Shown in pieces: positions 59,473-63,601 of a DNA stretch of 64,000 bases. Both the position numbers and the translations under genes were made by a program. Under the pieces are notes generated by a model. The model ran no database searches. It saw only the letters and a list, made by a program, of their open reading frames with translations, and was not told the DNA's origin. Every line of letters begins with the position of its first letter. Position 1 is the stretch's first letter. Location of the stretch: assembly GCA_963848135.1 (NCBI GenBank), contig CAWKCK010000003.1, positions 1,054,001-1,118,000 of the forward strand. The letters are read 5' to 3'. The stretch is from an uncultured delta proteobacterium. GTDB taxonomy: Bacteria; Desulfobacterota; Desulfobacteria; Desulfobacterales; SG8-13.

Positions 59473-59751
59473 TACAAGTCATTTCAAAAAAATATCCGAG
59501 ACCCCATCCGCCAAAGGCGGACGAGTCAAGGTGTTGCGGCCCTCTTGGGTCAGTGTCAGGGGCAAGGGCCCCCTGACATTGAAAACATACAGAATGCATG
59601 TTCCGTCTTTTCATCGGCCCGCGCCTTGTCCTTGAAGCTTCAGCTATATTTTTGAGATGCCTTGGTGTTGCTTCCCATTTCGGAATTGGACCCGCGATCG
59701 CACCATCAGCGTTTCGTGAACGGATTAAAGCCACGCAGGAGGGTCAAGTCA

Positions 59752-60906
59752 ATGTCGATACAGTTAACCGATGAACAGTTGATGATTCAATCGATGGTCA
59801 GGGATTTTGCGCGCGAAGTCATTGCACCGACCGCTGGGGAGCGTGACAAAACAAAGGCGTTTCCCGCCGATAACCTGCGACAGCTTGCGGAACTCGGTTT
59901 CATGGGCATGATGGTACCGCCGGAATACGGGGGATCCGGAGCCGACACCATCAGCTATGTTCTGGCACTTTCGGAGGTGGCCTATGCGTGCGCATCGACG
60001 GCCGTCGTCATGTCGGTGCACAACTCCATTGTCTGCGAGAGCATCCTGCGATATGGCAATGAAGCCCAGAAAAAAGAGTGGCTTACGCGTTTGGCCACCG
60101 GTGAAATTCTCGGGGCCTTCGCGCTCACAGAGCCCCAGGCCGGATCCGATCCCGTGCGACAGAGCACCAAAGCCATCCGGGACGGTGATAGCTACATCCT
60201 GAACGGCACCAAACGTTTCATTACCACTGCCAGCAATGCCGGCCTGACAATCGTCACCACCAAGACCGACGAAGCGGCCCGACATCGAGGAATCACGGCT
60301 TTTCTTGTGCCGCAGGAGACTCCCGGGCTTTCCATCGGTCAGCTGGAGGACAAAATGGGGCTGCGGGCCTCTGATACGGCCGACCTGATTTTTGAGGACT
60401 GCCGGATACCGGTGGAGAACAGGCTCGGCAAGGAGGGGGAAGGCTTCAAGATCGCCATGACGGGTCTTGATGGCGGACGCATCGGTATTGCATCCCAATC
60501 GGTCGGGGTTGCCCAGGCAGCGCTGGATGCATCGATCGAATACATGAAACAGAGAGAGCAGTTTGGACAGGCCATATCCAAGTTTCAGGGCCTACGCTGG
60601 ATCGTCGCCGACATGGCCACCGAAATTGAGGCGGCCCGTCAGTTGATGCTTTCCGCGGCGGCGATGAAAGACCGGGGTATCAATTATACCCGGCAGGCAT
60701 CGATGGCCAAACTCTACGCCTCGGAAATGGTCAACCGCGTAACGGCCAAGGCCGTGCAGCTCCATGGCGGATACGGGTTTATCCGGGAGTATCCGGTTGA
60801 ACGAATGTACCGGGACGCGCGTGTATTTACAATCTACGAGGGCACCTCTGAAATCCAGAGGGTGGTTATTTCCAACCACCTCTTTCAGGATAAGCGGACC
60901 CCTTGA
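59752..60906 (+). CDS. Short-chain (butyryl-CoA-type) acyl-CoA dehydrogenase
   Basis: FALTEPQAGSD, GTKRFIT, KMGLRAS, REQFG, HGGYGF, IYEGTSEIQR. Confidence 0.92.
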   Translation: MSIQLTDEQLMIQSMVRDFAREVIAPTAGERDKTKAFPADNLRQLAELGFMGMMVPPEYGGSGADTISYVLALSEVAYACASTAVVMSVHNSIVCESILRYGNEAQKKEWLTRLATGEILGAFALTEPQAGSDPVRQSTKAIRDGDSYILNGTKRFITTASNAGLTIVTTKTDEAARHRGITAFLVPQETPGLSIGQLEDKMGLRASDTADLIFEDCRIPVENRLGKEGEGFKIAMTGLDGGRIGIASQSVGVAQAALDASIEYMKQREQFGQAISKFQGLRWIVADMATEIEAARQLMLSAAAMKDRGINYTRQASMAKLYASEMVNRVTAKAVQLHGGYGFIREYPVERMYRDARVFTIYEGTSEIQRVVISNHLFQDKRTP

Positions 60907-62812
60907 CTTCACACGCGAATGCTTTCCGGAAATAGGTACTGGCTTCTGTCAGCATCAACCATCTTTGCTGCATCGCCACATCGGCAAATCCGATGTGCAG
61001 ATATTCGTTCGCATATTCTTTAAACTGATCCTGCCAGGCCAACAGGTTCTCTGCCGGGCAGTCGGAATCCACAAGAATACCATCCAATCCGGATAGCTGT
61101 TGCAGATCGGATACTTCCGGAAGTTCCGGGTGCGCCCACCAATTGACCTGCCGCTGCATATCACCACCGAAATGAACCGTTCGCTCAGGAGAAACCAGCG
61201 TAAACAGGGCGGCCCGGTTCCCGGGCTCCGAAAACAAATAACGCTGTTCGAGATCCAAAAAATGCGGCCGCTCTAACTTCATGGCGCCCAGTAGCTCCTT
61301 TGTATCCGGTAACCGTTTGGGCGCGATGAAGATGATTTCCAGGGGGGTAAACGGGTTGGCTGCCGTGAGGATTTCAAGCGCCCTTGCGGTGTAGGTCGGA
61401 TCTTCCAGGTCTTCTCCGATATAGATCTGGTAGGGATGGGTTAGATGGTCAGCCAGAGTTTGCAGCCTATGAAGCGATCGCGGCGTCAGCAGGATAACCT
61501 TGGCGACATAGGTGCCGTTACCGATGGTCACATGGTGATCCGGGGACGGACGTCCTCTTGGATGGCAGGTGCCGCGCCAGGCAATGTCGAGGCCCGGCAT
61601 CGGGTAGAGGCAGACGTCGAAGCGTGTCTCGGCATAGTCGAAGGCCAGGAGCAGGTCGTCGCGGGTGAATCCCGGTGTCGAAATGACAGAATAGGGAGGT
61701 TCCGGGTCGTACTGCAGGCCGAGGGCTTTGCTATTGGCTCTGAAATCGGTACCCGGCAGGACAGCCAGAGGAAAGACTTGAACGTCTGCGTGCAGACCGT
61801 TGTCGGCCACGAAATCGACCGAACGCCTGAAACCGTTAAGGTCATCGCCCGGCAGACCGGCAATCAGGTCGATTTCGGGGGTGATGTGGCGTTCTTTGAG
61901 TAGTGAAACGCCCGCCAAAAAACGTTTGAGGTCGGTGGGACGGTTCATCAGGCGCAGGGCTTCGGGGGTGGTTGACTGCAGTCCGGCTTCAAACCAGGTA
62001 AAACCCGCGGCTGCAAAAAGATCGGCCAGATGCCCTTCCAGCCGGTCGACCCTTATTTCACTGATCAGCGAAAGAACCCCGTTGTGATTGATGCCCTGTA
62101 TTTTCTCGAGCAGTGTCTTGAGACCGGGTCGGGCATTAATGGTCGGATCGAGCAGGTAGAGTTCGGCTATTCCGTTTTCTGCCGCCCATCTCACGGTTTC
62201 CAGCAGCAGGTGTTCGTCCTTGAAAGTTAGGTGGTCGCGGGATTTACTGTAGTAACAGTAGCCGCAATGAAAAGGGCAGCCACGCTGAGTCTCAAGCAAG
62301 ACCATGTTTTCGATTTCCGGCTCCAGCAGCCCCGCGATATAGGGGCTGGGGCTGGATCTGAAAACCGGTCCGGCACTGTTGGAAGCGGTTTTTTCAGTCC
62401 AGAGACCGGGATCCGCCATCAATCGGCGGAAGGTGGTTTCGCCTTCACCGAATGCAAGAAAATCGACTGCCGCCGATCGCACCAGCACGTTGTCAGGGGT
62501 GACTTCCGGGCCGCCAAAAATAATCCGGCACGGCAGGACCTCTTTTATCTTTTCAGCCAGAAAAAGCGAGCGCTTTAGGTTCCAGCAATAGACTGAAAAT
62601 CCGACCACATCCGGTTGCCGGGCGCGTATCTGTTCCAGCAGCGCCCCATCGCCCAGGTACGATACTGTGCTTTCGGGCAACATCGTCACCTCTGCACCGG
62701 GAATATCGGACGCAGACTGCTTCAGGCAAGCGGCACCCAAAGGAATGTTGCCCGTCTGTTTGCCGTAATTCAGCTGGGGAATGGGAAGCTGCAGCAGAAG
62801 TGCGCGGGTCAT
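60866..62812 (-). CDS. B12-binding radical SAM protein with C-terminal extension
   Basis: PLGAACL, GFSVYCWN, GGPEV, GEGE; ETQRGCPFHCGYC. Confidence 0.9.
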   Translation of the reverse strand: MTRALLLQLPIPQLNYGKQTGNIPLGAACLKQSASDIPGAEVTMLPESTVSYLGDGALLEQIRARQPDVVGFSVYCWNLKRSLFLAEKIKEVLPCRIIFGGPEVTPDNVLVRSAAVDFLAFGEGETTFRRLMADPGLWTEKTASNSAGPVFRSSPSPYIAGLLEPEIENMVLLETQRGCPFHCGYCYYSKSRDHLTFKDEHLLLETVRWAAENGIAELYLLDPTINARPGLKTLLEKIQGINHNGVLSLISEIRVDRLEGHLADLFAAAGFTWFEAGLQSTTPEALRLMNRPTDLKRFLAGVSLLKERHITPEIDLIAGLPGDDLNGFRRSVDFVADNGLHADVQVFPLAVLPGTDFRANSKALGLQYDPEPPYSVISTPGFTRDDLLLAFDYAETRFDVCLYPMPGLDIAWRGTCHPRGRPSPDHHVTIGNGTYVAKVILLTPRSLHRLQTLADHLTHPYQIYIGEDLEDPTYTARALEILTAANPFTPLEIIFIAPKRLPDTKELLGAMKLERPHFLDLEQRYLFSEPGNRAALFTLVSPERTVHFGGDMQRQVNWWAHPELPEVSDLQQLSGLDGILVDSDCPAENLLAWQDQFKEYANEYLHIGFADVAMQQRWLMLTEASTYFRKAFACEVKGSAYPERGGWK

Positions 62813-62831
62813 TTTCACGTGTATTGCCGTG

Positions 62832-62857
62832 GGATCACCTCGAACCGAGGTGGTACC
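62832..62857 (-). promoter_or_regulatory. Candidate bacterial SECIS element
   Basis: CACCUC-GGUUC-GAGGUG hairpin; loop G lies 21 nt 3' of the FmdB UGA. Confidence 0.5.
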
Positions 62858-62866
62858 TTAAATCGC

Positions 62867-63073
62867 TCACCCGGAGGGCTTACAGGCTTGCTTGGCGTCG
62901 AAACCACCTGAGCCTTTGGCGATGCCGCTGGCGCGGAAACAGCCGGCTGACATGAGTTTTTCAACGTCGGGGCAGGCACATTCGGGGCATTTCGGGGCAG
63001 ACTCCCTGGGGGACAGGGCCAGGTATTCAAAGCAATGGCAGCAGCCCTTACACTGGTATTCATAGATCGGCAT
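62867..63073 (-). CDS. FmdB-family zinc-ribbon protein (may extend to 62858 as a selenoprotein)
   Basis: MPIYEYQCxxC...CPEC...VEKLMS; SD GGAGAGG. Confidence 0.88.
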   Translation of the reverse strand: MPIYEYQCKGCCHCFEYLALSPRESAPKCPECACPDVEKLMSAGCFRASGIAKGSGGFDAKQACKPSG

Positions 63074-63184
63074 GCGAATCCTCTCCAAATTCAAGTCCCA
63101 TCAATGGGATGATATCCGGCGAATTAATCCGCCTCTTCGTCAAGCGTGTTTTTTAGTGGAATAATATTCATTCGAAATGCGGGT

Positions 63185-63601
63185 TCAAGGTTTCCAGCGG
63201 ACAGGTAGACGAATCCCGGCGTTTTTTTTCCGTCCGGGTCGCTCCTTTTCGTGCGCGTCCATTTTCTCCCGCCAGCGATAGAGCGCTTCCCAGACTTGAT
63301 AATAGGCATCCCGTCGCAATTCATCGCTCCCGGAAACGACATTCTTTTTCACGGAGGTATAATCCACCTGGAGCGCGCTATCTGCAAGATAGGCTGACCA
63401 GGCCTGTTTGGTAATCTTGAGTCGATAGCGGTAGGCGCGGCCCTCTCCTTTTATAATTTGACTTTCATCGCAATAGCCGCTCAATTTTTTTGCCAGGTTG
63501 CAAATATCCTCTTTGCACTGGCACCGAACCGCAAGTTCGTCACCGCGGCAATCCTTGTCCCAAACGACGGAGAAAAATCCTTCTCGGGTGAATACCCACA
63601 T
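63185..63601 (-). CDS. Conserved hypothetical protein
   Basis: MWVFT..GFFSVV, Y.YR, DY...K, Y.QVW; SD AGGGGG. Confidence 0.7.
   Translation of the reverse strand: MWVFTREGFFSVVWDKDCRGDELAVRCQCKEDICNLAKKLSGYCDESQIIKGEGRAYRYRLKITKQAWSAYLADSALQVDYTSVKKNVVSGSDELRRDAYYQVWEALYRWREKMDAHEKERPGRKKNAGIRLPVRWKP

Follow-up and report, generated by a model that had tools for sequence, protein, structure and literature searches.

Organization of the locus

The stretch examined here (hereinafter the window) comprises 64,000 nucleotides of contig CAWKCK010000003.1 from an uncultured delta proteobacterium of the Desulfobacterales. Its minus strand carries a short gene for an FmdB-type zinc-ribbon protein that is predicted to continue through an in-frame TGA and to encode a selenoprotein with selenocysteine (Sec) at the third position from the C-terminus. 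The open reading frame (ORF) delimited by that TGA, 63073..62870, begins with the ATG at 63073 and runs for 68 codons to ...GSGGFDAKQACKPSG, after which TGA GCG ATT TAA follows. The product scores above the cut-offs of the models for this zinc-ribbon family (39.9 bits for TIGR02605, where 31.3 are required; 39.2 bits for PF09723, where 34.4 are required), and belongs to FmdB by its two Cys knuckles, C8-x2-C11 and, after 17 residues, C29-x2-C32. Read through the TGA, it would have a zinc ribbon with four Cys at its N-terminus, then a linker rich in Gly and a flexible tail of the form C64-x4-U69-x-x-COOH, with U69 the predicted Sec.

Beyond the TAA lies a hairpin with a 6-bp stem and a GGTTC loop, the first base of which is the 21st nucleotide past the UGA (20 nt between the UGA and the loop). 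This is followed on the same strand by a gene for a cobalamin-binding radical S-adenosylmethionine (radical SAM) protein. The ORF listing starts the latter at the GTG at 62818, and the ATG at 62812, which is 45 nt past the FmdB TAA, matches the start in the closest relative (L024). An earlier reading of the letters of the window alone (the original prediction) had proposed an FmdB ORF running into UGA-GCG-ATT-UAA, a 6-bp stem with a GGUUC loop starting 21 nt past the UGA, and a co-oriented cobalamin radical SAM gene about 45 nt past the UAA. The first two are present as described, and the third holds with the ATG at 62812 and with matches to PF02310 and PF04055. The features are collected in Table 1.

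Table 1. Features of the FmdB locus and related selenoprotein genes of the source genome (G000). Positions are those of the window unless a locus or contig is named.
Feature	Position	Strand	Details
FmdB-type zinc-ribbon selenoprotein gene (predicted)	62858..63073	-	71 codons M1...G68, U69, A70, I71, then the true stop TAA at 62860-62858
In-frame TGA, predicted Sec codon U69	62867..62869	-	First stop at the 17 top-ranked loci and at 25 others with related tails; Cys column in 3 relatives
Predicted selenocysteine insertion sequence (SECIS) hairpin, 3' untranslated region (3' UTR)	62836..62852	-	14 nt between UGA and hairpin; 5' arm CACCTC 62852-62847, loop GGTTC 62846-62842, 3' arm GAGGTG 62841-62836; 6 bp
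Shine-Dalgarno-like GGAGAGG	63080..63086	-	6 nt upstream of the FmdB ATG; direct sequence reading
Promoter-like site TTGAAC-16-TATTAT	63161..63188	-	Upstream of the FmdB gene; weak, consensus match only
Class B (B12-binding) radical SAM gene	60866..62818	-	648-650 aa; likely start ATG 62812
Glutaredoxin-like gene containing two TGA codons in frame	L132:1489-1713 = G000 C18 ~434.2-434.5 kb	-	U-P-F-T near the N-terminus and S-U-G-V-stop at the other end; 3' hairpin similar to that of the FmdB gene
Small selenoprotein with dual CXXC motif	L129:1501-1659 = G000 C17:397286-397444	+	NF041197.2, 65.5 bits; one in-frame TGA

Conservation of the UGA codon and of the residues beyond it

Conservation that reaches right up to an apparent stop is a typical sign of a truncated selenoprotein. 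Of the 90 protein homologues retrieved from the database, nearly all have a length of 67-68 residues and C[KR]PSG, or something close to it, as their last residues; without exception, the 90 are either frame-broken or extend no further than the UGA. Three of them (P0016, P0081 and P0088) continue past the usual end into unrelated sequence; judging from the proteins only, these may be frame-broken versions, perhaps the result of an assembly error or of a decayed copy. P0016 has W-G-F-D where others have TGA-GGG-ATT-TGA, as it would with one base of the TGA lost.

Inspection of the corresponding DNA is more informative. A scan with one genome per species yielded 510 relatives, the best 80 loci of which were kept and read. 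All of the 17 best-matching loci (L024-L040) end in ...C[KR]P..G-TGA-[GRSA]-[IV]-stop, and 10 more distant ones (L041, L042, L043, L046, L048, L056, L058, L060, L066 and L086) end in ...GFS-TGA-A(S/G)-stop, the exceptions to the two-codon spacing in this second group being one locus with the stop 1 codon past the TGA and one with it 3 codons past. In the other FmdB loci (n=52) the tails are unrelated and rich in Ser and Lys, and the stop is TGA (24), TAA (19) or TAG (9); at the one remaining locus the stretch read contained no stop. Additionally, an order-level sample of 401 genomes was searched, with 150 matches listed and 641 more beyond these, such that figures taken from it are lower bounds. 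One TGA occurs within 59 of the 150 listed matches. Twenty further loci of this sample were read, mostly ones without a flagged stop; 15 show a TGA, two codons (four in one case) and a stop, and three are of a Cys type described below, the other two being L108, with a divergent tail, no near second stop and no hairpin, and a locus without a recognisable start. At least 72 of the 401 sampled genomes, spread over many families, carry the Sec-type gene, a lower bound because of the 641 matches not listed. In the source genome itself there are four other FmdB-like ORFs, and the TGA-xx-stop ending is found only in the gene of the window.

Across these sets, 42 other loci (the 17 best and 25 further ones) have TGA as their first stop, with neither TAA nor TAG at that codon, and between one and four sense codons after it, exactly two in 39 of them. 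The true stop of the 39 two-codon loci is in contrast variable, being TAG in 14, TGA in 13 and TAA in 12. The second codon past the TGA in the same 39 is ATC (12), ATT (11), ATA (3), AGC (4), GTC (2), GGA (2), GGC (2), CTT (1), GTG (1) or AGT (1); Ile is thus specified in 26 of the 39 through all three of its codons, with no instance of ATG. Likewise, the Ala of the GFS group is encoded by GCG, GCC, GCT and GCA. Coding constraint is therefore discernible downstream of the UGA, but the test is a thin one, covering only 1-4 codons.

In a protein alignment of 46 sequences the invariant columns are M1, P2, E5, C8, C11, F15, E16, L18, C29, C32, S42 and position 69; at the last of these, 43 sequences have the predicted Sec, whereas L105, L106 and L107 have Cys. 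The tail of L105, ...S-G-C-M-G-stop, is the Cys image of S-G-U-x-x-stop, and this protein is 76% identical to the Sec form L040 over 70 residues. The original prediction had named relatives with Cys in place of the UGA as something to look for, and TAA or TAG at that codon as counter-evidence; relatives ending with Cys do occur, and it is TGA that the homologues retain. Further, a Cys 4-5 residues before the Sec is kept in the close group, and three extra Cys (C12, C14 and C34), which could form a second site, are conserved in a close subgroup. Cys-rich tails are also found on other FmdB paralogues, one of them in the source genome. The latter, 75 residues long, starts at 431705 (+) on contig C17, about 2 kb downstream of selA (C17:428214-429581).

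A covarying hairpin downstream of the second stop

The hairpin of the window falls within all of the limits published for bacterial SECIS (bSECIS) elements, namely a loop of 3-9 nt, a stem of 4-16 bp, G in the first two loop positions, a distance of 16-37 nt from the UGA and a minimum free energy (MFE) no higher than -7.5 (as stated in PMC13188914): its stem is of 6-7 bp, its loop is GGUUC, the distance is 20 nt and the MFE is -11.9 kcal/mol. There is no T-run 3' of the hairpin, and a scan for terminators does not list it. Nevertheless, the single-sequence signal is no better than chance and becomes strong only via comparison. A loose rule (stem >= 5 bp; loop of 4-6 nt, with G and then G/U first; loop start 15-25 nt past the stop) was applied to the stops of long ORFs in the source genome, and is passed at 69 of 3202 TGA codons (2.2%), 62 of 2540 TAA codons and 27 of 1578 TAG codons. 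By the same rule, hairpins follow the TGA at 23 of the 27 first-batch loci and at 13 of the 14 evaluable second-batch loci, as against 1 of the 52 other FmdB loci.

When 27 sequences from the TGA to +45 are aligned with MAFFT, the hairpins fall in register. A tested helix of seven pairs is paired in 84% of cases, compared with 40-49% after sliding the partner by 1-3 columns, and its covariation score of 0.79 (0.15-0.27 when slid) was reached by 0 of 500 shuffles. Changes on both sides are seen in 7 of the 7 pairs. RNAalifold, with no structure supplied, returns a 6-bp helix lying within this seven-pair helix, with compensatory changes in 6 of 6 pairs. The stems are accordingly diverse in sequence (e.g., CACCTC, TTCCTT, CCCCC, GCGCCTC, GTTTCC and TGCGGC), while the loop starts with GGT, AGG or AGT. 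The conserved hairpin that the original prediction had suggested looking for in homologues is thus present, with a constant position and a covarying stem.

In the window, the 3' arm together with the next bases (62833-62841, minus strand) reads GAGGTGATC, a near-perfect anti-Shine-Dalgarno complement 20 nt upstream of the radical SAM ATG. The 3' arms of the close group are often purine-rich (GAGG..., AAGGAA, GGGGG). A role of the arm as the Shine-Dalgarno sequence of the radical SAM gene was considered and rejected, as 20 nt from the ATG is too far and the stems differ elsewhere.

Selenocysteine machinery and comparable genes in the source genome

The source genome encodes the apparatus for Sec incorporation, another point raised by the original prediction: selB (374 bits), selA (622 bits), selD (372 bits) and tRNA-Sec (76.5 bits) were all found above their cut-offs. 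Comparable signals occur in known selenoprotein genes of this genome. Its selD has an in-frame TGA of its own; the hairpin there has 7 bp in its stem and a GGTC loop whose first base is the 18th nucleotide past the UGA, and its formate dehydrogenase shows a 6-bp stem with a GGTCT loop starting at the 19th. In five of five other genomes carrying a Sec-type FmdB gene selA is likewise present. The idea that the Cys forms are confined to genomes without Sec machinery was rejected, since selA is present in four of four genomes tested, three of which are Cys-type. A second selB-like gene of the source genome (contig C15:43659-45516, minus strand; L002/L005) lies near the contig end in two abutting pieces that cover model positions 13-105 and 106-580; this may reflect a frameshift, an in-frame stop or a paralogue.

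The most direct parallel in the source genome is a small glutaredoxin-like selenoprotein of UXX-star family 1 (93.6 bits for NF041114.2, with the cut-off at 72), the gene for which ends in ...GNS-U-G-V-TAG followed by a hairpin, GGTGGC-AGGTT-GCCGCC. Because this curated member has Sec, two residues, a stop and then a SECIS in the 3' UTR, such a layout is already accepted for another family in the source genome. A covariance model constructed only from the FmdB hairpins has the end of the UXX-star gene as its best non-self match in 78 kb, at 15.3 bits.

Probable recoding of the UGA and the nature of the product

Considered together, these observations make it highly likely that the gene encodes a selenoprotein of 71 residues ending in C-K-P-S-G-U-A-I, and that its 68-residue annotation is too short. 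All of the computational checks that the original prediction had proposed for the selenoprotein turned out favourably. The comparison among relatives very probably reveals both a recoding signal and coding past the UGA. In mechanistic terms, SelB with Sec-tRNA(Sec) would be held at UGA69 by the 17-nt hairpin starting 14 nt downstream. As the hairpin would lie beyond the true stop, it would belong to the 3' UTR. Sec would be inserted, two residues would be added (Ala-Ile here, and elsewhere mostly Gly, Arg, Ser or Ala followed by Ile), and translation would end at the UAA. The Cys/Sec tail would then be the working end of the protein, presumably a selenium version of the Cys-rich tails common in the FmdB family, and the protein would act as a small carrier in its own right rather than as an obligate partner of the radical SAM enzyme.

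Several observations weigh against this interpretation. Within the single sequence, the 48-nt stretch has no folding advantage over dinucleotide-shuffled versions of itself (z = 0.01; 96 of 200 were equally good), and an Rfam scan of the region at E <= 10 gives zero matches. Among the relatives, five loci (L033, L035, L046 and L066 of the 27, and L111) fail the hairpin rule because the stem is weak, has a mismatch or contains additional G-U pairs, and 16% of the cells in the helix alignment are unpaired. The covariance model matches the UXX-star gene at an E-value of only 0.38 and did not recover the SECIS of selD or formate dehydrogenase; as these two lie in coding sequence without a near stop, the model is specific to the UXX-stop layout. 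On the protein side, the tail is of low complexity, and the Cys/Sec column moves by 1-2 positions with gap placement; Cys at the UGA position is seen in 0 of the 90 database homologues, and only 3 of the 46 other loci examined are Cys-type. Further, selA is equally present with the Cys-type genomes, and the machinery thus does not discriminate between the two types. The gene neighbourhoods have no consistent theme and give no functional pointer. Finally, the Sec-type set was first chosen by eye from the TGA-xx-stop pattern and consists of relatives rather than independent sequences, the non-circular part of the stop-pattern evidence being the 17 best-ranked loci.

As to function, Sec usually marks a working residue, whether redox or metal-binding. 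On account of this usual role, the retention of the upstream Cys and the presence of Cys-rich tails on paralogues, the tail is best viewed as either a selenenylsulfide redox arm or a carrier of soft metals or chalcogens mounted on a zinc-ribbon handle, a suggestion that we put forward tentatively and to which we would give somewhat less than even weight.

The radical SAM neighbour

The protein encoded downstream combines a B12-binding domain (PF02310, 48.7 bits) with a radical SAM domain (PF04055, 76.9 bits), which places it in class B, and its CxxxCxxC motif (C181-x3-C185-x2-C188) is invariant in 8 radical SAM orthologues. Its closest solved relatives are the methylases TokK (E 1.5e-24) and then CysS, with which it shares the B12-binding domain and the radical SAM core with CxxxCxxC. 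It differs from these in that it fits no named NCBIfam family, all of the named models scoring far below their cut-offs (best 83 bits vs 700), and in a C-terminal part of about 290 residues for which no family was matched.

The original prediction envisaged the Cys/Sec tail as the substrate, or the methyl or metal carrier, of this adjacent enzyme, which would make the two a dedicated maturation pair akin to those of ribosomally synthesized and post-translationally modified peptides (RiPPs). The two genes of the window do lie on the same strand, with a gap of 45 nt and no terminator-like site between them, and the nearest solved relatives of the enzyme being methylases would fit such a role. 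At 8 of the 27 related loci a full-length orthologue of the enzyme (52-80% identity) adjoins the Sec gene, downstream of it in five (L024, L025, L029, L030 and L037) and upstream in three (L031, L032 and L035). Across the order sample, 73 of the 401 genomes have a match to the enzyme at E <= 1e-120, and adjacency is seen, among the matches listed, in 20 of the 401: 7 genomes of family f1, including the source genome, 5 of f29 and 8 of f31. The FmdB gene precedes the enzyme in f1 and f29 and follows it in f31, and these two gene orders suggest that the adjacency has outlived rearrangement. Moreover, both genes were seen in 28 genomes among the matches listed, and are adjacent in 20 of them.

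On the other side, the two genes are on different contigs or far apart in the remaining 8 of those 28 genomes, with 3.9 Mb between them on the single chromosome of G146. In family f11 the TGA-bearing FmdB gene was seen in 12 genomes, among the matches listed, and the enzyme in none of the 12 (E <= 1e-120), while only 6 of 12 genomes of f29 yielded the enzyme. Conversely, when 20 orthologous loci of the enzyme were taken from other families, an FmdB-like ORF within 2.5 kb was absent from every one of them. The GFS-type Sec genes have quite different and unrelated neighbours, such as genes for Memo-like, thioesterase, MraZ and Usp proteins. Besides, the three families with adjacency are relatives, and shared synteny can account for much of it. 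The co-occurrence and adjacency expected of a RiPP-like precursor and its maturase are therefore not what is observed. The linkage is genuine but limited to three related families, and may represent co-transcription of convenience or a lineage-specific use. Of the proposed gene-pair synteny, the adjacency itself thus stands for 20 genomes whereas its generality does not, and the tail as substrate or carrier of the neighbouring enzyme is not supported as a general rule; a dedicated pair of this kind we regard as unlikely. In line with the original prediction, no described pathway for an FmdB/radical SAM pair was found in the literature searched.

A narrower version may still be entertained as a speculation of similarly low, if not marginally lower, likelihood. 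In the three adjacency families the ribosomally synthesized Cys/Sec tail might be modified by the cobalamin radical SAM enzyme (methylation of the selenium or of a carbon in the tail being one example), which would yield a peptide cofactor or carrier containing selenium. In a broader form of the idea, G-U-x-[IV]-COOH might constitute a portable selenium arm set on scaffolds as unrelated as a zinc ribbon and a glutaredoxin-like fold, and recognised there by a partner common to both. If true, a peptide cofactor or carrier with selenium modified by a radical SAM enzyme would represent a pathway without a described counterpart.

The remaining alternative, under which the TGA is a real stop, the second stop a safeguard should the UGA leak, and the hairpin an ordinary 3' stabiliser or terminator, could draw on the equivalence of the single-sequence fold to shuffles, on the ~2% of ordinary stops that pass the hairpin rule and on the annotation of every database entry as ending at or before the UGA, but is very improbable in view of a first stop that is invariant where the second uses all three stop codons, of Ile and Ala past the TGA kept through synonymous codons, of a covarying hairpin at a fixed distance from the TGA with G-G/U at its loop start, without a T-run and not classed as terminator-like, and of the same layout in a curated selenoprotein family of the source genome.

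A protein of 170-190 residues (approximately) with the DUF5658 domain (PF18902) is encoded on the same strand upstream of the selenoprotein or radical SAM gene at L025, L026, L027, L029, L032 and L035. It was considered as a constant partner and rejected, being present at 6 of 17 close loci but at 2 of 20 other enzyme loci.

Relationship to known selenoproteins

With recoding of the UGA as the preferred reading, the predicted FmdB selenoprotein can be placed relative to previously reported forms. The UXX-star selenoprotein families 1-3 (NF041114, NF041211 and NF047338; glutaredoxin-like) are included in Table 1 of PMC13188914, where they are credited to Haft & Tolstoy 2025. They share with the FmdB form a Sec third from the C-terminus, a true stop two codons past the UGA and a SECIS after the stop. 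The resemblance extends to details, in that the family 1 member of the source genome ends in S-U-G-V-TAG with a hairpin at equal distance, and some FmdB relatives end in TGA-GGG-ATT-TAG. In contrast, the scaffold here is a zinc ribbon and not glutaredoxin-like, and there is no second redox motif of the UxxT type. Consistent with this, the UXX-star models (NF041114, NF041211, NF047338 and NF041212) gave no match at E <= 10 to four members of the FmdB form. The FmdB form works like the UXX-star families without belonging to them.

A selenoprotein of the FmdB family proper (TIGR02605), named as a putative regulatory protein, has been predicted in the GOS (Global Ocean Sampling) metagenome on the basis of 2 sequences (Zhang & Gladyshev 2008, PMC2398784), and appears with the motif UxxU in Table 1 of the review (PMC13188914). 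The present form shares with it the family, TIGR02605/PF09723, and likewise the status of a computational prediction. However, according to PMC2398784, PMC13188914 and deep-Sep supplementary file 3, Sec in the GOS form replaces a Cys in the first CxxC knuckle, whereas here it resides in the C-terminal tail; both knuckles are Cys in all 46 aligned sequences, which thus do not belong to the known knuckle-Sec (UxxU/CxxU) form. The two also differ in their spread, the GOS form being reported from 2 sequences (PMC2398784) and the tail form having been counted in 72 or more of the 401 sampled genomes. A third family, NF041197 (CxxC_Se_CxxC), is similar in its small size, two CxxC motifs and single Sec, but its model gave no match at E <= 10 to four members of the FmdB form, and its match in the source genome is a separate gene (C17:397286-397444).

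Outside bacteria, mammalian thioredoxin reductase provides an analogy, with its C-terminal Gly-Cys-Sec-Gly arm and with a SECIS put after the stop for recombinant expression in bacteria. Both proteins would present a Cys/Sec pair on a flexible C-terminal tail; in thioredoxin reductase, however, Cys and Sec are adjacent and sit on a large flavoenzyme, whereas here the arrangement is C-x4/5-U on a zinc-ribbon protein of 71 residues.

No account of an FmdB protein with Sec near its C-terminus turned up in full-text literature searches, in the 2026 selenoprotein catalogue or, by term search, in the main texts of deep-Sep and BSepDB and those of their supplements that were searched; Haft & Tolstoy 2025 may bear on this novelty. 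As far as checked, this is an undescribed selenoprotein form, with a new position of Sec in the FmdB family, and a variant of the UXX-stop selenoproteins. The current NCBIfam release has no model for the tail-Sec FmdB form and the database entries stop at the UGA or earlier, or are frame-broken; therefore, pipelines will keep missing a selenoprotein of at least 72 of the 401 genomes.

If correct, these predictions have several implications. First, the layout of Sec, two residues, stop and 3'-UTR SECIS would be extended from a glutaredoxin-like to a zinc-ribbon scaffold. Bacterial SECIS elements are usually said to lie within the coding sequence, and the 3'-UTR SECIS of the FmdB form would run counter to this placement. 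Second, FmdB/COG2331 is a large family for which we know of no function, and the tail Sec points to the thiol-rich C-terminal tail as its active end. Third, the UGA with about 35 nt could serve as a compact natural cassette for studies of C-terminal Sec tagging in Sec-competent bacteria.

Other features of the window

Promoter-like sites, of which the one in Table 1 is upstream of the FmdB gene, number 3 compared with 1.7 expected in shuffles. Directly upstream of the selenoprotein gene is an ORF of 138 residues (63185-63601, minus strand), for which no Pfam or NCBIfam model scored above threshold. At the other end of the gene pair, the radical SAM ORF (60866-62818, minus strand) and an acyl-CoA dehydrogenase ORF (59662-60906, plus strand) converge with a 3' overlap of 41 nt (60866-60906).

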